From: a virus
Lineage: Duplodnaviria; Caudoviricetes
Length of the DNA stretch: 64,000 bases
IMG/VR virus record: IMGVR_UViG_3300013105_000843
Location: 1 to 64,000 of that record
Reading direction: 5' to 3' (one strand)
In this document: piece after piece, positions 7,485 through 63,255 of the stretch
Position numbering within the stretch: the first letter of the stretch is position 1
Layout: every line of letters starts with the position of its first letter
The notes under the pieces: model-generated
The model's input: the letters and a program-made list of their open reading frames with translations, nothing else
The model's database searches: none
Told to the model about the DNA's origin: nothing
Made by a program: the position numbers and the translations under genes

Positions 7485-7571
7485 TGGTACCCAGAGAGGG
7501 GCTCGAACCCTCACGCCGTTGCCGGCACAGCGCCCTCAACGCTGCGCGTCTACCATTTCCGCCATCTGGGC
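7485..7571 (-). tRNA. tRNA-Leu(GAG)
   Basis: Cloverleaf, loop TT-GAG-GG, long V arm, encoded CCA. Confidence 0.93.
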
Positions 7572-7604
7572 AAAAAAGGCCGCTTGTCAGCGGCAAAAAT
7601 CATC

Positions 7605-7680
7605 TGGTGCCGGAGATAGGAGTCGAACCTACGACCTTCGCATTACGAATGCGCTGCTCTACCAACTGAGCTACGCCGGC
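7605..7680 (-). tRNA. tRNA-Thr(CGT)
   Basis: Canonical 76 nt, loop TT-CGT-AA, CCA. Confidence 0.95.
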
Positions 7681-7710
7681 GAATCCGGTCAGAAACCGGG
7701 GTAAATCTGG

Positions 7711-7788
7711 TGGTGCCGTCGGCGCGATTCGAACGCGCGGTCTCCGTCATACCAAGACGGCGCCTTAGACCAGCTGGGCTACGACGGC
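7711..7788 (-). tRNA. tRNA-Thr(GGT)
   Basis: CCGTC TT-GGT-AT GACGG, CCA. Confidence 0.92.
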
Positions 7789-7811
7789 GATGATGCAAAA
7801 TCCTGAGTTGC

Positions 7812-7988
7812 TTACAGCCTCTTCCACGCGCGCTTGGCGGCCTTGTCCTCCAGCTCGGCGGCCTTCAGTTGGGCCGCCGCATGCTGCAGGCGCTGCCACT
7901 GCGGGAACAACTCCGGCGTGACTTCCTTCAACACCTTGATGCGCGCGCGTGCTTTCTTAATCTGCTTGGCCAAGGACTGGTCCATCAT
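7812..7988 (-). CDS. Small hypothetical protein (58 aa)
   Basis: GGAGA RBS, MMDQSLAKQIKKARAR...KRL. Confidence 0.55.
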   Translation of the reverse strand: MMDQSLAKQIKKARARIKVLKEVTPELFPQWQRLQHAAAQLKAAELEDKAAKRAWKRL

Positions 7989-8321
7989 TCGTCTCCCGGC
8001 TGGTGCAGCAAGAACACAAGCCTGTCAATGAGTGCAGTATAACGCGCAATGCGTTAAACGCAACATCCAACAGGGTTGTGCAGCAGCCTGCTGCACAATT
8101 CACGCAGCCTGGGGACGGTCGGTGGGCTTGGCCGGCAGCAGATACTGGCGCGACGCCGCGAGGAATGCTTCGATGGTCTGCTTCATGCTGAATCTCCCTT
8201 TGTTATCAGCTTGATATCGTTGTAGGCGCGCGGCACCAACGGGCGTGATACCGGCCGATGTCGTTTGCGACACTGGTTGGTGGTTTCACGCCACTGAGAT
8301 TGCACGGCCGCGCGGGGAATC

Positions 8322-8397
8322 TGGTGCATCCTGGAGGCATCGAACCCCCGACCCTCGTCTTGTAAGGACGCCGCTCTACCAGCTGAGCTAAGGATGC
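8322..8397 (-). tRNA. tRNA-Val(TAC)
   Basis: Loop CT-TAC-AA, CCA. Confidence 0.93.
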
Positions 8398-8431
8398 AAA
8401 GAAGAAAACTTTGTACTACGAATAGAATTCA

Positions 8432-8548
8432 GGCAAAGACGTGAGGGATTCGAACCCTCCCTGCCCGCCCATTTCGCCGTGGCGTCGCCGGACAGCGACT
8501 CCCTCGGGTACTCCGGGCCGGAGTGCACAACCATGACACTTCGTCACC
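8432..8548 (-). ncRNA. tRNA-like RNA with replaced anticodon arm
   Basis: Perfect T arm GAGGG-TTCGAAT-CCCTC, D-like GTG-TCATGGTTGTG-CAC, bulged acceptor-like pairing, no anticodon loop or CCA. Confidence 0.5.
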
Positions 8549-8630
8549 ATCAGGCTGGCATGTCCGCGCCCACCTGAAGTCCTGAAACCTGTGGCGTATC
8601 GAGCGCCTTGCTGTCTCGGTTACAGCCAAT

Positions 8631-8720
8631 TGGCCGAGAGCCAGGGAGTCGAACCCTGTGACCTCGTTTCCGAAGCCTACGGATTAGCAATCCGCTGCAT
8701 TACCATCCTGCCCGCTCTCG
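8631..8720 (-). tRNA. tRNA-Ser(GCT)
   Basis: Loop TT-GCT-AA, long V arm, G73, CCA. Confidence 0.92.
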
Positions 8721-8732
8721 TCGTTAAAATCG

Positions 8733-8809
8733 TGGTGGAGAAAACGGGACTCGAACCCGTGGCCCCCGGATTATGAGTCCGGTGCTCTAACCAGCTGAGC
8801 TACATCTCC
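8733..8809 (-). tRNA. tRNA-CAT (elongator Met or Ile2)
   Basis: CCGGA CT-CAT-AA TCCGG, CCA. Met versus Ile2 cannot be resolved by eye. Confidence 0.88.
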
Positions 8810-8825
8810 AGGTACTGCGAATTCT

Positions 8826-9053
8826 TCAATCCTCGCCAATGTCCTGGAACAGACGTCGTTCCTGCATCGTGCGCTCGAGGAAGTATTTGCGGGGATTGCC
8901 GCACATCGCGCACGAACATCGTGCCGCGGTCGTGACGGTAATCCCCAGTTCGACCGGGCTCTGCGCGAGGTCCCTGCCGAAGTAATGCCGGCGGTTATGT
9001 TTCAGCCGCTCGATATGGTGGCGCCGAAGCGCGCGGGTCATGGGCTTGGCCAT
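8826..9053 (-). CDS. Small basic hypothetical protein with CSCxMCGNPR motif
   Basis: GGAGA RBS, 75 aa, Cys cluster. Confidence 0.75.
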   Translation of the reverse strand: MAKPMTRALRRHHIERLKHNRRHYFGRDLAQSPVELGITVTTAARCSCAMCGNPRKYFLERTMQERRLFQDIGED

Positions 9054-9182
9054 ACAGTCTCCGTAGAGTGTCGGCCGCCAGCTGTACAGGACCCTCCTGC
9101 ACTCTTATACGCTGACGGCCGGTCGTATGACCGCAGCCGACCAGTAATTCCGCACGTCAATCTCCCACGGACTACTGAAAAA

Positions 9183-9258
9183 TGGTGGAAACGACGGAAT
9201 TCGAATCCGTGACCTCCGCAATGCGAGTGCGGCGCTCTCCCAACTGAGCTACGTCCCC
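9183..9258 (-). tRNA. tRNA-Ala(CGC)
   Basis: G3:U70 pair, loop CT-CGC-AT, CCA. Confidence 0.94.
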
Positions 9259-9271
9259 AAGCAAGAAAATC

Positions 9272-9347
<76 letters not shown>

Positions 9348-9407
9348 AATGAGCCTTTGCGTACTGTGAAAAAACAACGCGGCGCAATGGCTTTGAAACG
9401 GTTGTTC

Positions 9408-9499
9408 TGGCGGAAAGGAGGGGATTCGAACCCCTGTAGGACATCGCTGCCCTCATCTGCATTCCAAGCAGCGCCATTCGACCTCTCTGGCACCTTTCC
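9408..9499 (-). tRNA. tRNA-Ser(GGA)
   Basis: Loop TT-GGA-AT, long V arm, GCCA end. Confidence 0.92.
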
Positions 9500-9506
9500 A
9501 TAAAAA

Positions 9507-9623
9507 CTGTTTCAGCGCCGGCCCCTGCGCAACAGAGTTCAGGTCTGTCCGCTTGAGCCCATCCGATTTCAGCAAAGGCCTACTGGATTCGGCCCCGCCT
9601 ACGTCCAACCGACGCCTACTCCG
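9507..9623 (-). ncRNA. Unclassified structured RNA, CGGAGUAG...UGAAAC family, copy A
   Basis: Conserved end motifs flanking stem GCGUCGG/CCGGCGC. Confidence 0.65.
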
Positions 9624-9629
9624 AAATAC

Positions 9630-9706
9630 TGGTTGCGGGACGCGGAATTGAACCGCGTATCTTCAGCGTATGAAACTGACGGGGTAACCGGCTCCCTCTA
9701 CCCGCG
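9630..9706 (-). tRNA. tRNA-Met(CAT) with initiator-like acceptor stem
   Basis: CGCGGG...CCCGCAACCA (C1:A72), loop TT-CAT-AC. Confidence 0.85.
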
Positions 9707-9764
9707 AAGCGTTCGTGCTTCGTTGCAAAAGCACTTTGGTTTGGGTAAAACCGAAATGCTCTCG

Positions 9765-10935
9765 ATGGTGTACAGGCCTGAGACTACAGCCTGACGCGTC
9801 ACGACTTTCGAGCGGATTATCACGCGGCTTGCGGCCGGCGTTCCCACCTTGTCCACCCCGTCAAACGAGGTATCGTGACATGGCTGCCGTTTCGGGTTTC
9901 CCCAGGGAAGGCGGTCTCCCTGTCGCGATGCACTATTCGATTCTCGTCCTACCGCCGACCTTGCGAGCCGTTCGAGGTTGCAGCCTCTACGTGCGGATTC
10001 CAATCAACATCCTTCACCTTGCGGGCGTCAGACGCCTGCCTTCACGTTTCCGTGGACAGGATTAAGCCATTTTCATGCATCACCGGACACGGCTTTGCGT
10101 TTTTTGACAACGAGGATTTGAACCCCACCGTCGGCTTAAGAGGCCGATGCTCTACCGAATTGAGCTAATTGCATCCACTGCCACGAGCGTGTCCAAGAGC
10201 TTCACCACCTTTTGAGCGGCAAAATACTCCTCGCGGCATGTCTTTCGCCTGCCGGCTACTCAACGGTCCTTCTGGACTCCGTGCCATTTCTGGCCCGAAC
10301 CCCATTGAACTGCGCTGTCGCCATTGAGGGCATCTACGACAACAGCGCTACCCTTTCCCGTACAGGTTCGCATGTTGGTTAGGCTGGACCGCGGCACCAC
10401 CCGCTGCTGTTCGCCACCTCGGGTTCCCGTCCTTGCGGACGGCCCGGCAGGTAACGTTCTTCCCCAGCCACATGCTTCTCCCTTATCGCCACCGCTTTGG
10501 TCAGTGACGCGCTCCTTTCGGAGCCGGGGAGGCTTGCATGGATTGACCGCACCGGTCCCCGAAGAGACCGGCATGGCGCGAGTTAGTGGACTACCTCGCT
10601 TTGACCGCATTGCTGCGGCTGTCCTCCCCATGCGGAGTTGTCAGTGTCTCGCCGCGCAACGTGCAAGCACGCTACCCGGCCAGCATCGACGCGTTGCGGA
10701 GCCTTTCGGACTGGGCGCCTTACGGAACCCCACCGCATACGAGCTGACGTCGTCGAATCCTTGTTCTGCCAGACCGTCTCCGGCCGCACGCTCAACCTTC
10801 ACCGCTGTCCTGGTGCGCTGTCTTTCGACACGGGCCTCCTTTCGGTTAACCCAAGCGTGACGGGTGTTGTCTGCCGGGCCAGAACCCGACGGCGCAGCTG
10901 AAGCATCTGACGATGCACAATCGGGCACCGCCCGA
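9765..10935 (-). ncRNA. Very large structured ncRNA, GOLLD-like, with an embedded tRNA-Lys(CTT)-like element (10105-10174)
   Basis: About 1.15 kb with no credible ORF, dense GNRA/UUCG hairpins and its own promoter. The 3' part resembles recalled GOLLD motifs. Boundaries are approximate. Confidence 0.65.
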
Positions 10936-10945
10936 AAGAGAATGC

Positions 10946-10973
10946 AGTATAGCATTATAAATGTCGATGTCAA
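10946..10973 (-). promoter_or_regulatory. Sigma70 promoter for the large ncRNA and distal tRNAs
   Basis: TTGACA-N16-TATACT with extended -10 TG. Confidence 0.8.
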
Positions 10974-10992
10974 CACATTTACAATGAAATGT

Positions 10993-11069
10993 TGGTCGGC
11001 GTGACAGGCTTCGAACCTGCGACCTCGTGCTCCCCGAGCACGCGCTCTACCTGACTGAGCTACACCCCG
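10993..11069 (-). tRNA. tRNA-Pro(GGG)
   Basis: CGG...CCGACCA acceptor, loop TC-GGG-GA (atypical C33). Confidence 0.82.
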
Positions 11070-11077
11070 ATGAAACC

Positions 11078-11157
11078 TGGCCTCCCCGACACGATTCGAA
11101 CGTGCATGCGTCCATTTAGCCTTTCGACGGCTTCGGAGGCCGAGGGCATACGGGGAG
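11078..11157 (-). tRNA. Atypical tRNA-Arg(CCG)-like RNA with no D arm in the normal position
   Basis: 7-bp acceptor with GCCA, perfect T arm, CGGC-CTCCGAA-GCCG. A D-loop-like segment lies 3' of the anticodon arm. Confidence 0.65.
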
Positions 11158-11165
11158 AGCGAAGA

Positions 11166-11258
11166 CTGTTTCAGCGGCGCGACTCCTCAGCCCCAAATGG
11201 CTGGCCGCCCGGGAGGTTGCTGGTCCCGGGCGCGCGCGTTTTCACGCCGCCTACTCCG
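11166..11258 (-). ncRNA. Unclassified structured RNA, CGGAGUAG...UGAAAC family, copy B
   Basis: End motifs plus stem GCGGCGUGA/UCGCGCCGC. Confidence 0.65.
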
Positions 11259-11311
11259 ATATGCGTTGCTTCAGACCCACGCTGCACGTTGCCGGCGCGA
11301 AAGGCGAAAAG

Positions 11312-11401
11312 CAGTTTCAGTGGCCTGAGCATTTAACCAGCGTTCCAGGCTGGGGCGGCAGGAGGTTGCAATTCTGTCGCGGCATCAGTCCACCTACTCC
11401 G
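11312..11401 (-). ncRNA. Unclassified structured RNA, CGGAGUAG...UGAAAC family, copy C
   Basis: End motifs plus stem GUGGACUGA/UCAGGCCAC. Confidence 0.65.
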
Positions 11402-11407
11402 ATGAAT

Positions 11408-11493
11408 CTGTTTCAGCATCCCGGGGTGACCGACAGCGTTCAAGGCCGGCGGCCGCACGGGCATGGAGCCCGCGTCCCGAGATGCCTACTCCG
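11408..11493 (-). ncRNA. Unclassified structured RNA, CGGAGUAG...UGAAAC family, copy D
   Basis: End motifs plus stem GCAUCUCGGG/CCCGGGAUGC. Confidence 0.65.
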
Positions 11494-11514
11494 GTTGTTC
11501 GTTGCACTGCTCTG

Positions 11515-11600
11515 CAGAGGGGGCGGGATTCGAACCCGCGTGGCCTTTCGACCCATCCGCTTTCGAGGCGGCGCCGTTCGACCAGCTCCGGCACCCCTCT
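11515..11600 (-). tRNA. tRNA-Ser(CGA), CCA not encoded
   Basis: Loop CT-CGA-AA, long V arm, G73. Confidence 0.9.
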
Positions 11601-11654
11601 GCACAACAGTGCGTACATGGTGCCGCGCGACACATGACGCGCGGCCCTTTTGAT

Positions 11655-11743
11655 TGGCGGAGAGCGGGTGCATTCGAAGCCCATCCGGTTGCCCGGACCC
11701 TCGGTGTTCAACGCCGCGCCCAGCCCTGCCGGGTTCGCTCTCC
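11655..11743 (-). tRNA. tRNA-Ser(TGA), atypical, possible 8/4 structure
   Basis: 8-bp acceptor GGAGAGCG/CGCTCTCC, 6-bp D stem, loop GT-TGA-AC, long V arm, GCCA. Confidence 0.7.
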
Positions 11744-11803
11744 AGAAAACTGCAAAAAAGAGACCGCTCGTGAGCGGTCCGTGAGACATCTTTGTGCGCC
11801 AGG

Positions 11804-11983
11804 CTATGCGCCGTGAGGCAGCAAGGCGCGCGCAGGAACGGTCATGCGCTTGCCGACACCTGCGTCATCGACTCGCTCCACTGTCCACGTCGCCTGCCCG
11901 CAGTACGGCTCACTGGGTACGACCGTACGTACCAAATGTCCAGACTTCGTGAACCGGTAGGTCTTGCCGGGCTCAATCTTCAT
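11804..11983 (-). CDS. Small hypothetical protein (59 aa)
   Basis: MKIEPGKTYRFTKSG..., overlaps the upstream stop. Confidence 0.55.
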   Translation of the reverse strand: MKIEPGKTYRFTKSGHLVRTVVPSEPYCGQATWTVERVDDAGVGKRMTVPARALLPHGA

Positions 11984-12263
11984 GCCGCGTCTCGCTGCTG
12001 GAAAACCGCGCGGCCAGGTCGCACAGCCACTTTTCCTGCGGCTCGCTCAGCGGCACGCCAGTGTTCAGGCGATACTCGCAGCTGCGAATGAAGCTGCGCT
12101 CGCGGGAGCTGAGCTGCTCGTCTTTGTCGACCAACACCCTGAGCCAGCTTCGATGCTTCTCTTCGAGTGCCTGGGCAGCCGCCGCAGCAGCTTCCTGCTC
12201 ACGTCGCACCTTCGCCTGGTGCTCCGGGTCCATCAGTTTCGAAAAATCGATTTTGAATGCCAT
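11973..12263 (-). CDS. Hypothetical protein
   Basis: GAGGA RBS, LSSRERSFI...LSEPQEKWL. Confidence 0.7.
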   Translation of the reverse strand: MAFKIDFSKLMDPEHQAKVRREQEAAAAAAQALEEKHRSWLRVLVDKDEQLSSRERSFIRSCEYRLNTGVPLSEPQEKWLCDLAARFSSSETRHED

Positions 12264-12352
12264 GTGTGTCCTCTCGGGTGGATATGCCACCACGGTATAG
12301 GCACACCGGCGCGCGACTCGAATTCGAACCGCGCGCCGGCGGGCATCAATGC

Positions 12353-12928
12353 TCAGTTGAGCAGCAGGCGCGAGTGCCTCGGCAGCTGCGCGGCCAGGTA
12401 CTCGTGCTGGTCGGCCAGCACGTTGCGTCCCGACAGGATGAAGTGCTCGGCCCGGTTCGGTACGTACGGCAGGAACAGCAACGGCCGGAACTCATGCACG
12501 GGCTTGTCGCGCTTCGCCTGGTTGCAGTCGAAGCACGCAGCCGTGCAGTTCATCCATGTGTCCGCGCCGCCCGCAGCACGCGGGACGATGTGGTCACGCG
12601 TGAGCTGGTGCCGCGGAAACCGGACCCCGCAGTAAGCGCAGGTGAACCGGTCGCGCTTGAACAGCAGGTCGTTGTCCCGCGGGCTGAGCGGCAGCTCGTG
12701 CCGCAGCCAGCGCGCCGAGACTTCGCTGCCGGCAAGCGCGATAATCGGCTTGACCGTGATGACCGACGATACGCCGAGGCGCGAGGTGCCGCCGCGAAAC
12801 ACGCGTTGTGCGTCACCCAGCTCCCAGGCTACTTTGCCCTTCGCGTACGCCTTCACGGCGTCCTCGGGTGTGAGCCAATCGAACGGCTGGCCCGAGAGGT
12901 TGAGCACCAACACCTGCTGAATCTGCAT
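12353..12928 (-). CDS. HNH endonuclease
   Basis: RDRFTCAYCG, TRDHIVPRAAGG, NCTAACFDCN. Confidence 0.93.
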   Translation of the reverse strand: MQIQQVLVLNLSGQPFDWLTPEDAVKAYAKGKVAWELGDAQRVFRGGTSRLGVSSVITVKPIIALAGSEVSARWLRHELPLSPRDNDLLFKRDRFTCAYCGVRFPRHQLTRDHIVPRAAGGADTWMNCTAACFDCNQAKRDKPVHEFRPLLFLPYVPNRAEHFILSGRNVLADQHEYLAAQLPRHSRLLLN

Positions 12929-13002
12929 GATAGTCCCCTAATGCATACGTTTCCGAAAGAGGTAGTAGAGAAGTCAAGCCGCTTCCCTGGTCGGCATGAA
13001 GG

Positions 13003-13089
13003 TGGTGCCCGACGTCGGACTCGAACCGACAAGTGCCTCGCGGCGCCTGTTCTTGAAACAGGTGCGTCTACCGATTCCGCCAGACGGGC
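13003..13089 (-). tRNA. tRNA-Leu(CAA)
   Basis: Loop TT-CAA-GA, long V arm, CCA. Confidence 0.93.
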
Positions 13090-13274
13090 AATGGCGTCGG
13101 CTCTTCCCCGACACGCCGCTTCCTGCTGAAAGCGCGGATGACTCGCCTGCAGTTCCTTTTACGTCGCGCAGGTCTAACAGCCCGAAGGCTCGACGTCATC
13201 GCATCCGGGTACGCTGCGCGCAGCCAGTACGAGCTTCTCGTACAGACTGGAAAGAACGTACACGGAGCAATGCG

Positions 13275-13361
13275 TGGTACCGAAGGTGGGACTCGAACCC
13301 ACATGGCCTTGCGGCCACCTGCTCCTGAGGCAGGCGCGTCTACCAGTTTCGCCACTTCGGC
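13275..13361 (-). tRNA. tRNA-Leu(CAG)
   Basis: Loop CT-CAG-GA, long V arm, CCA. Confidence 0.94.
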
Positions 13362-13366
13362 ATTGT

Positions 13367-13442
13367 TGGTCGGTGCGACCCGATTCGAACGGGCGACCCC
13401 CTGGCCCCAAACCAGGCGCGCTACCAGCTGCGCTACGCACCG
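13367..13442 (-). tRNA. tRNA-Pro(TGG)
   Basis: Loop TT-TGG-GG, CCA. Confidence 0.94.
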
Positions 13443-13662
13443 ATAGAAGATATCTGCCGGGTCCGCGAGAGCCTCTATCCCGCGCTCTTACCTCAAGTCC
13501 GCGCACGCTCATGCGTGCCGACCAGAGGGCCGTTACTGCTACTCGGCAGACAGAAAATCGTGGGCTGCTTAGGCCAGCCAATCCGCAGGTTACGGGTTCC
13601 TGCGTTCCGCCCTATCGTTGCGGTTCGGTTTATCGCCGCGCAGGTGCTGCGCCGCGGGGTTA

Positions 13663-13778
13663 TGGAGGAGACGGCAGGGCTCGAACCTGCGACCACGCGC
13701 CAAACCAAGTGCGGACGTTAGCGCCGAAGCGCAGGGCGCCGCACAGGGGCCGTGCTCTACCGACTGAGCTACGTCTCC
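13663..13778 (-). ncRNA. tRNA-like RNA whose anticodon arm is replaced by a long UUCG-capped stem
   Basis: Perfect acceptor, D arm, T arm and UCCA end. Insert GTGCGG...GCGC-TTCG-GCGC...CCGCAC. Confidence 0.75.
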
Positions 13779-13788
13779 AGCTGGATAC

Positions 13789-13865
13789 TGGTCGGGGCGG
13801 TGGGCATCGAACCCACGACCTTCGGATTAAGAGTCCGCTGCTACTGCCAGCTGAGCTACACCCCG
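13789..13865 (-). tRNA. tRNA-Lys(CTT)
   Basis: Loop CT-CTT-AA, CCA. Confidence 0.92.
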
Positions 13866-13869
13866 GTTG

Positions 13870-14395
13870 TTGTTGGGTATGGCGTTGGTGCCGGTTCGAC
13901 CCGGCGGGCACGCGCAGCGAGAGCGTAGGAACTGAATCTACGTGTGCAGCTGCGACGCATCGGATTCCCTGCCCTTGCTACTCCAGTCCATTCACCTGCC
14001 ACCTTTTCCGGTCGGCAACAGATTTCCGTGTCGTTTGGCTTGGCAACCAACAATTCAGCCGACTGCTTCACCCCTTTCGCTCGCGCGCGCTAATCAGGAT
14101 GGAACCCGCATCTGTTCGGATGTGCCTGCGGTCAGCGCCTCGGCAATCGACTGAATTGTTGGATGACGTGCGCGATGGTTTGCGGCCACTACGGCTTGCA
14201 GCTTGCCTGCCAGCATGAAGCTTCCGATTCGCGGGTGTCAGCTTCCGAACCTGAGATGGTCGAGGCAAGACGTTTCGTCTGCCGCCATCACCCACCGGGG
14301 AAATCGACCCCGGCTCCTACTCCGGCATTCATCGTTACCCCCGGCGGGCAGAGCCACGTTGAACACCCGTGTGGCGGGGCCTGGACTACAGGCTT
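13870..14395 (-). ncRNA. Large structured ncRNA, ROOL-like
   Basis: About 525 nt non-coding interval between tRNAs, with a 20-bp stem (14047-14066/14143-14162). Segments resemble recalled ROOL motifs. Confidence 0.5.
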
Positions 14396-14401
14396 GGCAA
14401 C

Positions 14402-14477
14402 TGGTGGAAACGACGGGATTCAAACCCGCGACCCCCTGCTTGCAAGGCAGGCGCTCTCTCAGCTGAGCTACGTCCCC
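14402..14477 (-). tRNA. tRNA-Ala(TGC)
   Basis: G3:U70 pair, loop CT-TGC-AA, CCA. Confidence 0.92.
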
Positions 14478-14538
14478 AATGTCCTGGCGCATACGTTTGT
14501 GCAGCTGCTGCACGCGTGTATGCGTCAAGTTGTGAAAC

Positions 14539-14616
14539 TGGCTCCCCAGGTAGGGCTCGAACCTACCCGCTCCGGATTAACAGTCCGGCGCTCTACCATC
14601 GATGAGCTACTGGGGA
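14539..14616 (-). tRNA. tRNA-Asn(GTT)
   Basis: Loop CT-GTT-AA, GCCA. Confidence 0.93.
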
Positions 14617-14625
14617 ATTGAAACC

Positions 14626-14868
14626 TCAAGCGACTGGCGGTCGCGTCGCGACGCCATGCGTTTGATGTCTCAGATGGTGAGGGCGGAGAGGCTCGAACTC
14701 TCGCCGACCGGGTAAAAGCCGGTTGCTCTGCCCGTGAGCTACACCCTCGAGTGCCACCTTGTCGGCACGACGCTGCGCCTTGTGAGGCTTGTCGTGCGCG
14801 CCCGCTTTCTTGAAGAGACTGGCGACCACGAACGGGTTGCGTGGTGCCAGCTTCGGTTTTCGCTTCAT
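14626..14868 (-). CDS. Small basic protein whose frame runs through tRNA-Lys (40 codons precede the tRNA)
   Basis: GGAGG RBS, ATGA coupling to upstream ORF, MKRKPKLAPRNPFVVASLFKKAGAHDKPHKAQRR. Confidence 0.65.
   Translation of the reverse strand: MKRKPKLAPRNPFVVASLFKKAGAHDKPHKAQRRADKVALEGVAHGQSNRLLPGRREFEPLRPHHLRHQTHGVATRPPVA
14675..14748 (-). tRNA. tRNA-Lys(TTT)
   Basis: Loop CT-TTT-AC, CCA. Confidence 0.9.
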
Positions 14869-14990
14869 GCGACCTCCGTGTGCTTCATCATGTGCCTGCC
14901 CAGCGGCCGACGCCGGCTGGCGCGCGGCGTGCGCGCGTTCAACCGGCTCAGCTTCCGGGTCGGCAGGTCAATATGCTTGTGCTTTCGCAT
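14865..14990 (-). CDS. Small basic protein, truncated paralogue of the upstream ORF
   Basis: MRKHKHIDLPTRKLSRLNARTPR...MKHTEVA. Confidence 0.55.
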   Translation of the reverse strand: MRKHKHIDLPTRKLSRLNARTPRASRRRPLGRHMMKHTEVA

Positions 14991-14996
14991 AGCCGC

Positions 14997-15182
14997 TCAG
15001 GCGACCTCCGACGCCTTCATCGTGCACGGGCCGTGCTTGCACCCGCAGTTTGCGCATCGCTGGCCGACGCCTACCTTGTAGGCGTCGCAGCGGCCGCACC
15101 AGAACAGGCCCTTGCGGGGCGTTCGGGCGTTGAGCCGATTGAGCTTCCTTGTCGGAAGCTCGGTGTGTTCATGCAGGCGCAT
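14997..15182 (-). CDS. Small zinc-ribbon protein
   Basis: GAGGAG RBS, WCGRCD...CANCG. Confidence 0.65.
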   Translation of the reverse strand: MRLHEHTELPTRKLNRLNARTPRKGLFWCGRCDAYKVGVGQRCANCGCKHGPCTMKASEVA

Positions 15183-15210
15183 TACGCTGCTCCTCATCGA
15201 AGAGACCGCT

Positions 15211-15288
15211 TGGGGGTGGCTGGTGAGACTCGAACTCACGCATGAGAGGGTCACAGCCTCTCGCCTTACCCCTTGGCGACAGCCACCC
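15211..15288 (-). tRNA. tRNA-His(GTG)
   Basis: G-1:C73 pair, loop CT-GTG-AC. Confidence 0.93.
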
Positions 15289-15298
15289 CGAAACAGTC

Positions 15299-15628
15299 TC
15301 AGTTGCGCTCGAGCAGTTTCGCGGCGAACCGCTCGAACTGTTCGTCAGCGATGAAGTCGTCGCCGGGTTCGACCGCCTCGATTGCGAGGAACACATCGAA
15401 GACCTTTTCGTCGACGGGATGCCTGATGCGCTCGAGGAAACGCTGGCTGAACTTTACGCGCCAGTGGATGAAGCACTGTGCCGGTGCGTGCCAGCGCGCG
15501 ACGCGCGCATTGCGGCAGCGGCCGCGGTAGTAGCGCCCGTGCTCGAGCTGCTCCTTGCGCAACAGGCCGGCCGCATAAGCGGTGTCCATCTGCTCCGGAG
15601 ATGGGTCTGCGGGTAACCGGAACAGCAT
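15299..15628 (-). CDS. Hypothetical phage-like protein
   Basis: AGGAGG RBS, YYRGRCRNARVARW motif. Confidence 0.75.
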   Translation of the reverse strand: MLFRLPADPSPEQMDTAYAAGLLRKEQLEHGRYYRGRCRNARVARWHAPAQCFIHWRVKFSQRFLERIRHPVDEKVFDVFLAIEAVEPGDDFIADEQFERFAAKLLERN

Positions 15629-15647
15629 GGACGCCTCCTTGCGAAAG

Positions 15648-15724
15648 TGGTCTCCGAGACAGGGATTGAACCTGCGGCCTCCGCGTCCCGAACGCGGCGC
15701 TCTCCCAGACTGAGCTACTCGGAG
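15648..15724 (-). tRNA. tRNA-Pro(CGG)
   Basis: Loop TT-CGG-GA, CCA. Confidence 0.92.
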
Positions 15725-15737
15725 AATGGATAATCAA

Positions 15738-15815
15738 TGGTGCAAGGTCCTGGAATCGAACCAGGTTCTACGGATTTTCAATCCGTCGCTGAATCACCAG
15801 ACTAGCTCACCCTGC
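15738..15815 (-). tRNA. tRNA-Phe(GAA)
   Basis: Loop TT-GAA-AA, CCA. Confidence 0.9.
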
Positions 15816-16591
15816 ATGAGTCGTTCGTAAGCATCTTTCTCGACAACAACTATCCGCTTATCCGGATGTTGCTCCCGCACAAGCTGCATCTTTCGTCGGT
15901 CATTGCCCCACCAGAAGCCCTTGATTTCAAGGTAGAGCTGCTGTTCTGCCAAATAGAAATCCGGTGTGTACGTGCGGTGTTTGCCGTCCATCACGTAGAC
16001 CAAGACGTCACGGTGGGTTCGAAGCTTCGTCCACGCGATTCCCAACGAGGACAACATCAAACCCACATTCCGTTCCCAGGTGCCTTGAACCATCTGTCCG
16101 TCGACCAGATACCATCTGCATCGACCACCATGGTTCTTGACAGAGCGGGCAAGGCTCAACTTCTGGCGCAGCTCCAAAGAGTGGGTCTTTCCCGTGAAAC
16201 TCGGAATGACTTCCCCTGCGGCAATCCGCGCAGCGAGAGTCGCACCAAACTTCGCGACGCGTTCGTCGGTGTCTTTGGTGCGGCCGTGATTCCACGCCTT
16301 ACGGCCCTCGTTGTAGCGTGAGCCTGGCGCGGTGCCTAAGTGCTGTTGCCCTTCGACGGTGTGAGCGCGCCATGCATGTGCAACCACGGCGTTTTTGCTG
16401 CCTACGAAGGAGCATTCGCGACATTGGAACTCGTCGTCGTGCTGCACCCAGGTTACGGCTGCCGCTTTGCTCGCTTCGTATTCCGCCCAGGCCTGTGGGC
16501 CGTGCGCTTTTATGTGTTTGTGCAATCCGTTTGACTTCTTCTCCACGCCACAAACGGGGCAAGCCGCTGTCGTGTAGACATACTTTGGCAT
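15794..16591 (-). CDS. Putative homing endonuclease (Zn fingers, NUMOD3-like region, PD-(D/E)xK domain)
   Basis: CPVC...H...H, CREC...H...H, AWNHGRT, FTGKTHS, YTPDFYL...LEIKG. Lower GC than flanks; stop codon lies inside tRNA-Phe. Confidence 0.8.
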   Translation of the reverse strand: MPKYVYTTAACPVCGVEKKSNGLHKHIKAHGPQAWAEYEASKAAAVTWVQHDDEFQCRECSFVGSKNAVVAHAWRAHTVEGQQHLGTAPGSRYNEGRKAWNHGRTKDTDERVAKFGATLAARIAAGEVIPSFTGKTHSLELRQKLSLARSVKNHGGRCRWYLVDGQMVQGTWERNVGLMLSSLGIAWTKLRTHRDVLVYVMDGKHRTYTPDFYLAEQQLYLEIKGFWWGNDRRKMQLVREQHPDKRIVVVEKDAYERLMQGELVW

Positions 16592-16617
16592 ACGAGGTCG
16601 CCTCACGATGCATTGTT

Positions 16618-16692
16618 TGGTGTGCGATAGGGGAATCAAACCCCTCTTCCCTGGGCGAAAACCAGGTGTCCTAGTCGATAGACGAATCGCAC
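16618..16692 (-). tRNA. tRNA-Glu(TTC)
   Basis: Loop TT-TTC-GC, CCA. Confidence 0.87.
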
Positions 16693-16740
16693 GATGAAAC
16701 AGGTTGCTGCTGGCCAGACCGTGATGAAGGCCAGCGGTGT

Positions 16741-16847
16741 TGGTGCGCAGCGGAAGGAACCGAACCTCTTGCCCATAGGGAACCGGGTTACGGTCGGCCG
16801 AGAGGGCAAGCAGCCACAACATCAGCTCGCCCATATTGGCGCCGCGC
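16741..16847 (-). tRNA. Atypical tRNA-Tyr(GTA)-like RNA with greatly enlarged D arm
   Basis: 8-bp acceptor with ACCA, GGGCGAGC/GCTTGCCC hairpin, loop CC-GTA-AC. Confidence 0.55.
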
Positions 16848-16853
16848 GAAAAT

Positions 16854-16931
16854 TGGTGGGGGAGGCAGGATTCGAACCTGCGAACGCCCTGGCTCAGAAC
16901 GGTGGCTTGGACCGCTTGCACTCACTCCCCT
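16854..16931 (-). tRNA. Degenerate tRNA-like gene, possible Gln(CTG)
   Basis: Good T arm and CCA, but unpaired anticodon stem around TT-CTG-AG. Confidence 0.45.
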
Positions 16932-16947
16932 ACAGGAAAACACATTG

Positions 16948-17020
16948 CATGGCAGGAGGGCATCGAACCCCCAACCTTCGGTTTTGGAGACCGGCGCTCT
17001 GCCAGTTGAGCTACTGCCAT
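16948..17020 (-). tRNA. tRNA-Trp(CCA), CCA end not encoded
   Basis: Loop CT-CCA-AA. Confidence 0.92.
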
Positions 17021-17051
17021 GCAATGTGCTTTTTTCGGTACTACGAATTAC

Positions 17052-17128
17052 TGGCAAGGGCGGAAGGATTTGAACCTTCGACACGCGGAATCAAAATCCG
17101 CTGCTCTACCGGACTGAGCTACACCCCC
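17052..17128 (-). tRNA. tRNA-Gln(TTG)
   Basis: Loop TT-TTG-AT, GCCA. Confidence 0.92.
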
Positions 17129-17158
17129 ACGGACAACGATGCTGCAATGAGCGCTTCG

Positions 17159-17244
17159 TGCGTCGAGCTAGATTCGAACTAGCGTGGCCACGTCGTGACA
17201 ACAGATTTACAGTCTGCCCCCTTCAGCCTCTCGGGCATCGACGC
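17159..17244 (-). tRNA. tRNA-Tyr(GTA), CCA not encoded
   Basis: Loop CT-GTA-AA, long V arm. Confidence 0.92.
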
Positions 17245-17274
17245 ACGAAGCGCTCACTACAGGTACATCAAATC

Positions 17275-17350
17275 TGGTACGTCCAGCAGGACTCGAACCT
17301 GCGACCCCCGCGTTCGTAGCACGGAACTCTTCCAACTGAGCTATGGACGT
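17275..17350 (-). tRNA. tRNA-Arg(ACG)
   Basis: Loop CT-ACG-AA, CCA. Confidence 0.93.
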
Positions 17351-17374
17351 ATTGTTGCGGATACAACGAAAATA

Positions 17375-17473
17375 TGGAGCCGGGATGCAGACTTGAACTG
17401 CGTGGGCGACGCCTGGGCTCCAAGTCGACGCTCTTATTGATTCGTACCGGCAGCCAGACCGGACTCTCCCGGC
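17375..17473 (-). ncRNA. tRNA-like RNA without a recognisable anticodon arm
   Basis: Acceptor GCCGGGA/TCCCGGC-TCCA, T arm GCAG-TTCAAGT-CTGC, non-canonical interior. Confidence 0.6.
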
Positions 17474-17486
17474 AAACAACGAAAAC

Positions 17487-17562
17487 TGGAGCGGGAAACG
17501 AGCTTCGAACTCGCGACCTCCACCTTGGCAAGGTGGCGCTCTACCAACTGAGCTATTCCCGC
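17487..17562 (-). tRNA. tRNA-Gly(GCC)
   Basis: Canonical, loop TT-GCC-AA, TCCA. Confidence 0.96.
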
Positions 17563-17580
17563 GGTGTACTGCGATGAAAC

Positions 17581-17656
17581 TGGCCGCCGACGAAGGGAAT
17601 CGAACCCTCATGGAACGGATAGACAATCCGCTGACCTACCAATGGCCCACGTCGGC
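17581..17656 (-). tRNA. tRNA-Asp(GTC)
   Basis: Loop TT-GTC-TA, one extra G before CCA. Confidence 0.85.
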
Positions 17657-17691
17657 AAAATCTGCACTACTAATAAAGCAATTTTCAATGC

Positions 17692-17766
17692 TGGAGTGCC
17701 CCACCGGAGTCGAACCGGTCTGAGTCGGATTTGCAATCCGGCGCCTGGCCGCTCAGCCAGAGGCAC
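17692..17766 (-). tRNA. tRNA-Cys(GCA)
   Basis: Loop TT-GCA-AA, U73, CCA. Confidence 0.93.
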
Positions 17767-17778
17767 AGCGAAAACGGT

Positions 17779-17855
17779 TGGTAGTGGACGTAGGATTCGA
17801 ACCTATCTGCCTCTCGCTTATCAAGCGAGTGCTCATCCAGATGAGCTTGTCCACC
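17779..17855 (-). tRNA. tRNA-Ile(GAT)
   Basis: Loop TT-GAT-AA, CCA. Confidence 0.9.
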
Positions 17856-17883
17856 ACGGTGCAACGGTGCAACGGTGCAACGG
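17856..17883. repeat. 8-bp tandem repeat (ACGGTGCA)x3.5
   Basis: Directly visible in the spacer. Confidence 0.85.
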
Positions 17884-17895
17884 ACCAACGAAAAC

Positions 17896-17969
17896 TGGAG
17901 CGGGTATCGGGAATCGAACCCGAGTGTTCAGCTTGGAAGGCTGCTGCTCTACCATTGAGCTACACCCGC
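17896..17969 (-). tRNA. tRNA-Gly(TCC)
   Basis: Loop CT-TCC-AA, TCCA. Confidence 0.94.
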
Positions 17970-17984
17970 ATGGAAATCCTTCAT

Positions 17985-18089
17985 CGCTGCCCGCTGGATT
18001 TGAACCAGCGCTGACGGGCGCCCGCCACCTGGAATGGATACCAGTCTCCCTCTGCAATGAGGTGCTCTACCAGCCTGAGCTAGAGCAGC
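17985..18089 (-). ncRNA. tRNA-like RNA with 6-nt anticodon loop and two-hairpin variable region
   Basis: Canonical D and T arms, CCTC-ATTGCA-GAGG, extra hairpins, no CCA. Confidence 0.6.
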
Positions 18090-18105
18090 GATGAAGAATC
18101 GTGAA

Positions 18106-18183
18106 TGGTGCCGTCGGCGTAGATTCGAACTCGCGACCCGCCGCCTACAATGCGGCCGCTCTACCGGGCTGAGCTACGACGGC
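18106..18183 (-). tRNA. tRNA-Thr(TGT)
   Basis: Loop AT-TGT-AG, CCA, bulge in T stem. Confidence 0.88.
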
Positions 18184-18706: not shown

Positions 18707-18734
18707 AGTATAGCGAGCATTGGGCTCATGTCAA
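18707..18734 (-). promoter_or_regulatory. Sigma70 promoter of the tRNA array
   Basis: TTGACA-N16-TATACT. Confidence 0.82.
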
Positions 18735-18875: not shown

Positions 18876-20711
18876 TCAACTCTCGTTTTCGAAGGTGTCG
18901 GCTAGCTCGGTGAGCACCACTTCCAGCGCCTCCGGCCCCACCTCGAACGGGCTCTTCACAATCTTCAGCGGCCCGCGCGCCGCGTCACCGGTCATCGTCG
19001 CGACCGGCTGGGCAGTGCTCGGCTGCTCAACCTGCGGCGCGCTCGCCAGCACAGCGGCCGCCTGTGCCGCCCCTCCCTGCGGCGCCGGCTGACCGGCGGG
19101 GGGCGCGAGCTTGAGCATCGGGCGCGCTTCGAAGTCGCGGTCGGCGTAGTGTTCGGCGATGCGCTCGCGCTTTTTCGGGAACGCCAGCTTGACGCGGCAA
19201 ATCGGGTAGTCGCCCTTGAGCTTGAAGAAGCCATGGAGGTCCTTGAGCCGCTGCAGCTGGACCGGCATGACCGCGCGCTCGGTCTGCACCTGCTCGTTCA
19301 GGCCGGCGGAGCCTCCCGATTCCGATGAGGACTCGCCGCGCATCATGCGCGATACCTCCTTGTCTCCAATATAGGTGGAGATGTATTCGGAGGTCTCCGG
19401 GTCCGAGCAGCGCAGCACCAGCCACGATGACAGGCACGACAGGATGGTCTGAGCGCCCTTCTCGCCGTAGCGGTCCTGGAGTTGCGAAATCGCCTGCAGG
19501 CCAATGAGCAGGCACCCGCCCTTCTTGCGGGCCTTGGTCGCGAAGGCCTCGATGGTCTGCACCTTGCCGATGGACGCGAACTCGTCAATGATGAGCCACA
19601 CCCGACGCCCGCTATTCTCTGGCAGCGACAGGATGGTCCGCGCCGCGACGTCGAGCGCGCACGAAATCATGTTGCGCAGGGAGTCGAGCTGGTCGTCGCG
19701 GTACGTGAGGAACAGGAATCCGGGTTTGCCCGCACGGATGAACTTCGACACCGAGAACGGGTCGTCGCGGTCTTCCAGGTAGGCGTAGGTCGCCAGGTAG
19801 TTCGACGCGATGGTGCGAATCGAGCCGAAGGTGCGCTCGGAGACGAGCTGCGCGGCCGCCGGCGTGCCGGCCAGAAACTGCGCCAGCTCTTCAATGGGCG
19901 CGGCCTGCACGTAATAGAGCAGCTCCTTGACGGACAGGCGCTTCAGCTCATCGAGCTTGCGCAGCACCGAGGTCACGAACGTCTGGGCATACCCGTTCCA
20001 CTCCCGAGCTTCACCCTCGCCGTCGGGGACCATCGACTTGGACATCGCCTCGTCGTGCCCCGGACCGGAAATCTCGGCCGTCGGCGACCAGGGGGCACAG
20101 CGCTCGTCGAACGGGTTCAGGATGCGGTCACGCCCCTCGCGGTAGTAGCGCGAAGCAAACTCGCCGCCTGAGTCGACGACGAGCGCGATGTCGCCGCGCG
20201 CCTCGATATCGTCGAGCAGGCGCGTGATGGCGACCGACTTGCCGGTGCCAGTCGAACCCACGACCAGGAAGTGATAGGGCTCGGCGCTGCGCGGGATATT
20301 CACGCCGGCAATGGCCAGGCTTTCCTCGAAGTCAGACTTCGGCAGCGCCGACGCTGTCTTTCGATTGACGTCCGAGGGCGTGCTGACCGTGGCACCCCGG
20401 CGCAACTTCTCGCGCGGGCGCAGCCGGCGCGCCAGCAGGTTCAGGACAGGGGCGATGCCGGCGCCGAGCGCGAGCCAGGCCACGGTGACCCCGGTAGGGA
20501 GCGTGCCCGGCAATGCGTGCAAGCCCAGCAGGGCCACGCCGATGGCCGCCGCGTAGAGCATCAGGCGGGTCAGCTTCGCTGCGAGCGGAAACCAGTTCAC
20601 CCAGCGTGCGGCAAGCTTGCGCCAGACCGTAAAGAGGGAATACAGGGCAAAGCCGAACAGCACGAGCTGCGCGGGCTCGCTATCCAGCCAGGAAAGGATG
20701 GCTTCGTTCAT
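18876..20711 (-). CDS. traD: Type IV secretion coupling protein (TraD/TrwB family)
   Basis: N-terminal TMs, HFLVVGSTGTGKS (Walker A), LNPFDERC, WLIIDEFASIG (Walker B), GLQAISQLQDRYG. Confidence 0.9.
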   Translation of the reverse strand: MNEAILSWLDSEPAQLVLFGFALYSLFTVWRKLAARWVNWFPLAAKLTRLMLYAAAIGVALLGLHALPGTLPTGVTVAWLALGAGIAPVLNLLARRLRPREKLRRGATVSTPSDVNRKTASALPKSDFEESLAIAGVNIPRSAEPYHFLVVGSTGTGKSVAITRLLDDIEARGDIALVVDSGGEFASRYYREGRDRILNPFDERCAPWSPTAEISGPGHDEAMSKSMVPDGEGEAREWNGYAQTFVTSVLRKLDELKRLSVKELLYYVQAAPIEELAQFLAGTPAAAQLVSERTFGSIRTIASNYLATYAYLEDRDDPFSVSKFIRAGKPGFLFLTYRDDQLDSLRNMISCALDVAARTILSLPENSGRRVWLIIDEFASIGKVQTIEAFATKARKKGGCLLIGLQAISQLQDRYGEKGAQTILSCLSSWLVLRCSDPETSEYISTYIGDKEVSRMMRGESSSESGGSAGLNEQVQTERAVMPVQLQRLKDLHGFFKLKGDYPICRVKLAFPKKRERIAEHYADRDFEARPMLKLAPPAGQPAPQGGAAQAAAVLASAPQVEQPSTAQPVATMTGDAARGPLKIVKSPFEVGPEALEVVLTELADTFENES

Positions 20712-20850
20712 TTTGGTCCAAGCACTGAAAGGTCGCGTAGTGCGACCGCCGGACCGGTATAGGCAGATGAGCGAGGGATGGCGCGCGACGCGCCGCGCAA
20801 ATGAAAACGCCACCCGCGAGAGGGTGGCGCATGCGTGGTGGCGCGCTGGC

Positions 20851-62984: not shown

Positions 62985-63255
62985 ACTTTGGGCGACCGGG
63001 CAATCGCGGCCCGGTGGCAGTTTAGGCAACTGCCAGATAACGGCTGTCGTTAGCAGTTATTTTTTGCGTCTTTCGCCGCGCGAAACGCGCCGCCGGGCAT
63101 GCGCCTGCCCTCGTTGCCGCCTTTGCCTTCATGCGCTGTCAAAACCTGTCAGCCCCATCACATGCACACCTGAGACAGATGCGCAGGTGGTGGAGCTGGC
63201 GAGGAACTCGAACCCCACTTCCAACACACGTCAACTCTGGAGGAGTTACAACGAT
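62985..63255 (-). ncRNA. ssrA: Circularly permuted two-piece tmRNA
   Basis: Acceptor piece ending GGTTCGAG...CAGCTCCACCA (63188) precedes the coding piece starting GGGGCTG (63156). Tag ANDSRYLAVA* at 63054-63022. Confidence 0.9.

Follow-up and report, generated by a model that had tools for sequence, protein, structure and literature searches.

The stretch of DNA analysed here, 64,000 nucleotides (nt) in length and called the window below, makes up the first 64 kb of an IMG/VR record of 129,556 bp (IMGVR_UViG_3300013105_000843), which is labelled as a provirus and has a CheckV completeness of 63%. On its minus strand, within a tRNA array, the window contains a further GOLLD RNA. The explanation that we favour, and which is very probable as a whole, is that of a single minus-strand GOLLD RNA that would be transcribed from a promoter of its own, would assemble into a cage, and would retain a tRNA-derived domain in its linker. 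Few natural RNAs are known to assemble into closed cages, and GOLLD is one of them. The family itself, which is reportedly due to Weinberg et al. in 2009, its setting in tRNA arrays of phages and other mobile elements, and the presence of tRNAs or pseudo-tRNAs in its linker are already published, and the case adds no new principle. The points of interest are minor ones: the length, the G+C content (GC), the RNA's own promoter, an element that is possibly not a phage, and an acceptor end that is frayed throughout a clade. As a GC-rich GOLLD with a simple sigma70-type promoter, it should be easy to express.

The identification rests on the covariance model of the family. A scan of the whole window with cmscan against Rfam 15 gave one GOLLD (RF02032) match, at 10239..9775 on the minus strand, with a score of 189.6 bits (gathering score, 150; E = 7.5e-52); the alignment spans positions 1–416 of the 416 of the model without truncation. 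An Rfam scan of the 129.6-kb record found no other GOLLD. The model covers only the conserved 3′ domain of the RNA, P14–P27 (PMC12990946). A note made earlier from the sequence alone had named the family from four 3′ motifs (UCAAAAG, GGCUUAAU, AUAAUCC, and GUAGUCUCAG); all four are present on the minus strand where it placed them, and the full-length match upholds the family assignment. Within the 3′ domain one finds:

9775..10239, minus strand: conserved 3′ domain of GOLLD with its pseudoknot, P14–P27 in the published numbering (RF02032, 189.6 bits)

10215..10209, minus strand: L14 loop UCAAAAG, A-rich, of the P14 hairpin (sequence and cmscan alignment)

About 10058..10051, minus strand: 3′ motif GGCUUAAU (sequence)

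9778..9820, minus strand: 3′-terminal signature AUAAUCC ... GUAGUCUCAG, with AUAAUCC at 9820..9814 and GUAGUCUCAG at 9787..9778 (sequence and cmscan)

The cmscan alignment places in the window the P14 hairpin, the long-range pseudoknot, tetraloops of the CGCAAG type, and the 3′ signature, and it flags only a handful of pairs as noncanonical. The pseudoknot strands, GAUGCA and UGCAUC, depart from the model consensus in sequence and pair with each other. The GC of the RNA, 0.57–0.59, is near that of the GOLLDs of Caulobacter phage and other proteobacterial GOLLDs.

Upstream of the region covered by the Rfam model lies a 5′ domain that four other GOLLDs share, as assessed by comparison with relatives. 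Its features are:

10240..10261, minus strand: junction motif GAGUAGCCGGCAGGCGAAAGAC, adjoining the Rfam match on its 5′ side (alignment with relatives)

10240..10625, minus strand: conserved core of the GOLLD 5′ domain, about 385 nt, with GCAA and GAAA tetraloop hairpins and the long-range helix GCCUCCCCG / CGGGAAAGGGU (similarity and covariation)

10442..10427, minus strand: hairpin CCGUCC-GCAA-GGACGG (sequence)

10524..10511, minus strand: hairpin GCUCC-GAAA-GGAGC (sequence)

10570..10551, minus strand: UUCG hairpin CCGGUCUC-UUCG-GGGACCGG (sequence)

10626..10939, minus strand: putative 5′ extension or leader, about 315 nt, from the promoter to the conserved core, hairpin-rich, for which no relatives were detected

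The GCAA, GAAA, and UUCG hairpins named in the earlier note were all found at its coordinates, on the minus strand. Aligning the window with the closest public sequence, phage CcrKarma, gives a strongly conserved block, GAGUAGCC.GC.AGGCGAAAGAC, at 10261..10240, just before the start of the model. This junction motif is invariant in the window, in Karma, and in the metagenome contigs L223, L224, and L225. When metagenome contigs were searched with it as a pattern, it retrieved three loci, each with a GOLLD 3′ domain directly downstream (208 bits in L225, 179 bits in L223, and 144.6 bits in L224). By BLAST, L223 and L224 are 68–69% identical to the window over some 200 nt (10549..10348). In the RNAalifold consensus of 10560..10236 of the window with L224, L223, and L225, compensatory changes occur in 24 of the 47 predicted pairs, and both tetraloop hairpins and the long-range helix are included; the block 10680..10545 adds two further covarying hairpins, from near 10625, in which 13 of the 18 pairs show compensatory changes. 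The core motifs GGUGGUGC..ACCAA and GUCC.GA..GACCGU recur in aquatic viral GOLLDs of low GC, at the corresponding position. Hence, the 5′ core is the 5′ domain proper to the family and nothing new. As judged from these sequence comparisons, support extends over about 850 nt (10625..9775), the usual size of a GOLLD. The 5′ region of 700 nt as a whole folds at z = −4.2 relative to 20 shuffled sequences. In the minimum free energy fold, the extreme 5′ end (UCUUUCG) pairs with CGAAAGA of the junction; this pairing is probably spurious, since the consensus fold has the junction in a local hairpin that is conserved, and the complementary 5′ sequence is missing in relatives.

The boundaries of the transcript are set by the following elements:

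10946..10973, minus strand: putative sigma70-type promoter TTGACA-N16-(TGc)TATACT (11 of 12 consensus positions)

11069..10993, minus strand: tRNA-Pro, ending 20 nt upstream of the −35 hexamer of that promoter

9707..9774, minus strand: 68-nt trailer without intrinsic terminator, leading into tRNA-Met (terminator search and tRNA call)

9706..9630, minus strand: tRNA-Met, starting 68 nt downstream of GOLLD

The promoter proposed in the earlier note, TTGACA-N16-TATACT, is indeed found at 10973..10946, with an extended −10 TG upstream of TATACT. It is the sole promoter-like site in 9000–12000, where shuffled sequences average 0.5. Only two sigma70-like sites of the 12-kb tRNA array match at 11 of 12 positions, and they are identical in hexamers and spacing: one heads GOLLD, and the other, at 18734..18707, heads the array. 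From the consensus match, transcription is predicted to start near 10939. No minus-strand intrinsic terminator was found between 9775 and 9000, so transcription probably runs on through tRNA-Met and the tRNAs after it. Minus-strand terminator-like hairpins lie at 11780..11761 and 7594..7579, the latter being the next such site past GOLLD, and the placement of promoters and terminators suggests two transcription units in the array. The primary transcript would accordingly begin near 10939 at the strong sigma70-type promoter, with GOLLD as the first product of a GOLLD-plus-tRNA transcript running through tRNA-Met and the tRNAs that follow. Cleavage by RNase P at +1 of tRNA-Met (9706), together with 3′ trimming, would then free a GOLLD of about 0.85–1.2 kb.

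The linker of the 3′ domain, between its first hairpin and the pseudoknot strand, is occupied by a folded insert:

10104..10173, minus strand: tRNA-Lys(CUU)-like domain in the GOLLD linker (Rfam tRNA, RF00005, 43.8 bits against a cut-off of 29)

10093..10105, minus strand: linker-exit motif AAAAACGCAAAG, directly 3′ of the tRNA-like domain, matching the model consensus AAAGCAAAAG

The domain sits just after the first 3′-domain hairpin (P14) and corresponds to the internal unit with D, anticodon (CUU), and T arms but no CCA that the earlier note had recognized and that the Rfam tRNA match confirms at 10173..10104. The anticodon loop reads CUCUUAA, with the lysine anticodon CUU at 10140..10138. 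The D and anticodon arms are canonical, the T arm is one pair short, and the acceptor helix reaches five of its seven pairs only if the T stem is allowed 4 bp, with 1–72 and 2–71 open. ARAGORN did not call the domain in the window, even at relaxed settings. The domain is followed by AAAAACGC and no CCA is encoded, unlike in 30 of the 33 tRNAs of the array. CCA can be added after transcription, so its absence does not exclude a tRNA. Canonical genes for tRNA-Lys(UUU) and for tRNA-Lys(CUU), the latter at 13865..13789, are already present in the array. At the exit of the linker, AAACGCA-AAG is invariant across six aligned GOLLDs; the invariant AAACGCAAAG begins 1–5 nt past position 73, is part of the GOLLD fold, and leads into the pseudoknot strand. 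Because the acceptor end is frayed and CCA is missing, the domain likely stays in the RNA and is not freed as a tRNA. It is probably a tRNA-derived domain kept for its shape, which is released as a working tRNA poorly or not at all.

A tRNA is found in the linker of seven of nine proteobacterial-type GOLLD 3′ domains, including those of Caulobacter phiCbK-like phages, and always at the same site, between the P14 hairpin and the invariant AAACGCAAAG. The two 3′ domains without it are the first copy on a Pseudomonas plasmid and L225. Seven inserts were compared, that of the window and the six below:

CcrKarma: anticodon CUU

Erythrobacter phage XM05: anticodon CUU, with G33 in place of U33; the GOLLD itself is sub-threshold, at 120 bits

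Second tandem GOLLD on the 910-kb Pseudomonas plasmid: anticodon UUU

G053, an alphaproteobacterial genome: odd loop CCACUAA (ACU)

L223: anticodon UUG

L224: anticodon ACG

In the comparison of all seven, pairing reaches 97–100% in the D, anticodon, and T helices, where both positions have changed in 9 of the 14 pairs, but only 70% in the acceptor helix. With the best register for each sequence, all seven have five or six of the seven acceptor pairs and six have 1–72 open. CCA follows none of them. On these alignments, the linker tRNA appears as a feature of the clade, a conserved and covarying domain whose acceptor end is systematically imperfect.

Self-assembly of GOLLD into a dihedral RNA-only cage of 10–14 copies is known only from cryo-electron microscopy of two homologs (PMC12286853, PMC12990946). 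The env-38 GOLLD, of 833 nt, is a closed D7 14-mer (PDB 9MEE; PMC12286853, PMC12990946), and that of Streptococcus agalactiae, of 700 nt, is a 12-mer (9L0R; PMC12990946). In the solved cages the 3′ domains make up the ring and the 5′ domains the caps, while the linker points to the empty interior (PMC12286853, PMC12990946). The family is large, with 806 nonredundant GOLLDs retrieved from public genomes (Kretsch et al. 2025, PMC12286853). Since the 3′ domain of the window matches the family model over its full length, the RNA most likely assembles in the same manner. From homology to the solved GOLLDs, the RNA would self-assemble into a closed RNA-only cage of 12–14 copies, the tRNA-like domain would remain part of each, and 12–14 such domains would be held inside the cage by the inward-pointing linker. 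Retention of the domain agrees with the result of a Northern blot in mycobacteria (PMC6582537) and with the "inhibited storage" idea, in which tRNA is stored or inhibited inside the cage (PMC12990946). The frayed acceptor end across the clade makes this published hypothesis directly testable.

Several points weigh against the explanation as a whole. Both ends of the transcript, and indeed the transcript itself, are predicted, and the mature RNA may be shorter than 1.17 kb, a length that is uncertain because it hangs on the predicted start site. No comparable consensus promoter was found in the relatives examined, and the GOLLD of CcrKarma ends in a strong terminator with a 17-bp stem; therefore, the proposed operon layout would be specific to the element of the window. 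The 5′ extension (10939..10626) has no DNA matches in phages, plasmids, or GOLLD relatives, and the segment 10939..10561, which includes it, folds at z = −1.7, barely beyond shuffled sequences. The anticodons of the inserts are diverse (Lys, Gln, Arg, and the odd ACU), as expected of present or recent decoding tRNAs. Finally, cage assembly is extrapolated from two solved homologs with shorter 5′ domains, and a 5′ region of 700 nt with a folded insert of 70 nt could alter the stoichiometry or block closure.

The length of the mature RNA is the point on which an alternative survives best. There is a substantial chance, if somewhat below even, that the mature GOLLD consists only of the conserved part of about 850 nt (about 10625..9775) and that the first 315 nt or so are a processed leader or a separate small RNA. 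Conserved and covarying sequence does start near 10625, the resulting size fits the solved GOLLDs of 833 and 700 nt, and the 315 nt in question lack relatives and lie in the segment that folds so weakly. They also align poorly with GOLLD relatives, whose 5′ regions are shorter: 455 nt between the 3′ domains of the tandem Pseudomonas copies, and no more than 508 nt in Karma. However, 10939..10626 contains no internal promoter, terminator, tRNA, or Rfam family, and several hundred unaligned nucleotides likewise precede the core in L224 and L225. An unconserved 5′ end is moreover expected, because the 5′ regions of GOLLDs are known as the variable part of the RNA. The earlier note had described a long, GC-rich example; the GC stands, whereas the length of about 1.17 kb rests on the predicted start, with about 850 nt shared with relatives.

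A second alternative is that GOLLD serves as a carrier or precursor, from which a working tRNA-Lys(CUU) is excised by RNase P and 3′ processing and receives its CCA, so that GOLLD is split in two. The Rfam score of the insert (43.8 bits) is in keeping with this, as are the compensatory changes that maintain the D, anticodon, and T arms across the seven GOLLDs. ARAGORN calls six of the seven inserts. Under the identity rules of E. coli tRNA-Lys, A73 and the anticodon CUU are compatible with lysine. Excision is nevertheless unlikely, and it keeps the small share of probability that we give it because the anticodons vary among relatives as they do in decoding tRNAs. The insert of the window is the one left uncalled, with its short T stem and open 1–72 and 2–71, and it lacks the CCA encoded by nearly all tRNAs of an array that already supplies both lysine tRNAs. 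U33 is lost in XM05 and G053, and the invariant AAACGCAAAG, which starts so close to position 73, belongs to the GOLLD fold. In Mycolicibacterium aubagnense, a Northern blot gave no separate product of the pseudo-tRNA internal to GOLLD (PMC6582537).

The cargo of the element is centred on translation upkeep: 33 tRNAs, a transfer-messenger RNA (tmRNA), a kinase-like open reading frame (ORF) beside an RNA ligase, and a release-factor gene, the last being a call of the earlier note. The tRNA set, the tmRNA, and the kinase-like ORF beside the RNA ligase point to a role of the cage in the support or protection of translation for a mobile element. A more specific proposal is that in this proteobacterial clade the linker tRNA, being neither precursor nor passenger, is a permanent, unprocessable tRNA body with its frayed 1–72 end and no CCA, displayed 12–14 times inside the cage, that would act as a multivalent decoy or sponge for host anticodon nucleases or other tRNA-targeting defences, or would sequester a tRNA-binding host factor. 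Lysine tRNAs are classic targets of PrrC and PARIS. We regard this proposal as improbable.

ORFs of 101–178 amino acids are present on both strands of the GOLLD stretch. In the five longest of them (in 9698–10976), GC is nearly flat by codon position, about 0.6/0.6/0.6, compared with about 0.68/0.47/0.85 in five real genes of the element; at third positions the ranges are 0.54–0.60 and 0.78–0.88, respectively. A Pfam search of the ORFs gave no match at E ≤ 0.01. The whole stretch is noncoding, and the "no credible ORF" of the earlier note holds. That the locus is not a functional RNA gene at all, being a decayed GOLLD remnant, a chance likeness in GC-rich spacer, or protein-coding, is close to refuted: the ORFs and the fact that the transcript is predicted from sequence alone speak for it, but the E-value of 7.5e-52 over the full-length model with few noncanonical pairs, the strong promoter upstream, the compensatory changes in the 5′ domain, and the flat codon-position GC of ORFs without Pfam matches all speak against it.

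Compared with other members of RF02032, the window GOLLD has the full 3′ domain, the pseudoknot, the signature loops, the variable 5′ domain, the setting in the tRNA cluster of a mobile element, and the linker between the first 3′-domain hairpin and the pseudoknot strand. It differs from the AT-rich GOLLD seeds by its GC of 57–59%, and from the env-38 RNA by a 5′ region of about 700 nt, if the predicted start is right, instead of 420 nt. Unlike the solved GOLLDs, it has a sigma70-type promoter of its own and no terminator, and its linker, instead of being a short disordered loop, accommodates a folded tRNA-like domain of 70 nt.

The closest public sequence, CcrKarma (JX100811, 103.2–103.7 kb), is 69% identical to the window over 10282..10081. 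It shares the junction motif, a tRNA-Lys(CUU) insert with imperfect acceptor at the same site, a similar GC, and a permuted tmRNA. Its 5′ domain is shorter (≤508 nt) and barely alignable with that of the window, and its GOLLD has the 17-bp terminator that the window lacks. Karma is also a bona fide virulent phage, whereas the element of the window carries a type IV secretion system (T4SS) coupling protein and a ParM-like gene. In Karma, the GOLLD (171 bits) adjoins the permuted tmRNA, which lies on the opposite strand (L002:1720-2038 and L002:2547-3033). The phiCbK-like phages Magneto, Swift, Ccr5, and RBC57 also carry the Karma-type GOLLD. The GenBank records of phiCbK-like phages annotate only a "tRNA-Lys" at this place, and in a literature search we found no paper naming GOLLD in these phages.

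The 910-kb plasmid of Pseudomonas sp. FeN3W (CP136011, 122.4–123.8 kb) has two tandem GOLLDs, of 196 and 193 bits (L218:2417-2822 and L218:3278-3739), with a tRNA-Lys(UUU) in the linker of the second only. PLSDB, whose gene table contains no RNA genes, annotates neither. The metagenome contig L224, of 49.8 kb, carries more than 45 tRNAs, and at L224:5378-5459, in the would-be 5′ region of its GOLLD, there is a weak tRNA-Sec-like match (33 bits, cut-off 47).

GOLLD is also known from mycobacterial tRNA arrays, which Morgado et al. reportedly treated in 2020. There it lies inside arrays of about 32–37 genes (Behra et al. 2019, PMC6582537). By description, the mycobacterial case resembles the window in the near-complete tRNA array, the HNH endonuclease, the horizontally acquired element, the internal pseudo-tRNA, and the high GC (PMC6582537); it differs in the host phylum and in the insert, which is tRNA-Phe or a pseudo-tRNA (PMC12990946) and not Lys-like. 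ROOL, another RNA of phage tRNA islands that assembles into an RNA-only nanocage whose disordered linker is internal (PMC12286853), is unrelated to the window GOLLD in sequence and fold. The window contains no ROOL match at the gathering score, and 11070–16620 contains none at E ≤ 0.05. A ROOL-like identity was considered for 13870–14395 and dropped: with no Rfam match at the gathering score or at E ≤ 0.05, this segment is not a recognizable ROOL if it is a large RNA.

Further relatives were sought with a pattern built on the 3′ signature, ATAATCC-N15-40-GTAGTCTCAG, which has 17 fixed bases. It matched 90 viral loci and more than 120 genome loci, and an Rfam scan of 14 GC-rich loci among them recovered GOLLD in none. 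The 3′ signature alone is not diagnostic, and matches to the pattern in large collections are mostly due to chance. About 14 low-GC viral loci with UCAAAAG at 381–405 nt from the 3′ end look genuine and were used for motif comparison only. An nhmmer profile built from the signature loci was too noisy to serve as a filter. Two stricter patterns, derived from the alignment of the window with Karma, yielded Karma alone among viral contigs. A search through a neighbouring protein (window 12353–12928) gave no loci, and tblastx of L224, L225, L222, and L218 against the record found no genes in common. Among 151 sampled Alphaproteobacteria genomes there was a single sub-threshold GOLLD, of 148.8 bits; hence, the family is rare among the Alphaproteobacteria searched.

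By ARAGORN, the tRNA array around GOLLD (7485–18183) comprises 33 minus-strand tRNAs that serve all 20 amino acids; the Rfam scan of the window gave 35 tRNA matches. The array tRNAs without CCA in the ARAGORN call are Ser-CGA, Trp-CCA, and Tyr-GUA (11514-11600, 16947-17020, and 17158-17244). Other genes of the element include:

63253..63022: permuted tmRNA (Rfam)

Window 18876–20813: TrwB/TraD-type T4SS coupling protein

Record 92673–93800: ParM-like actin

Record 89288–91552, outside the window, minus strand: two adjacent ORFs, one with HD and AAA_33 (kinase-like) domains and the other an RNA ligase (PF09414)

The coupling protein is 53% identical to one found on Variovorax plasmids of about 800 kb, and the 800-kb Variovorax plasmid with the closest coupling protein has no GOLLD. 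Among about 30 large ORFs of the element, none was recognized as a phage structural gene, which makes the provirus label doubtful. The element is at least as likely to be conjugative or megaplasmid-like. The element also encodes GyrB/ParC-like topoisomerase subunits, an NAD-dependent ligase, a ribonucleotide reductase, an HNH endonuclease, and RuvB. The HD/kinase-like and RNA ligase ORFs, on the same element as GOLLD, resemble an RNA or tRNA repair pair of the Pnkp/Rnl type.

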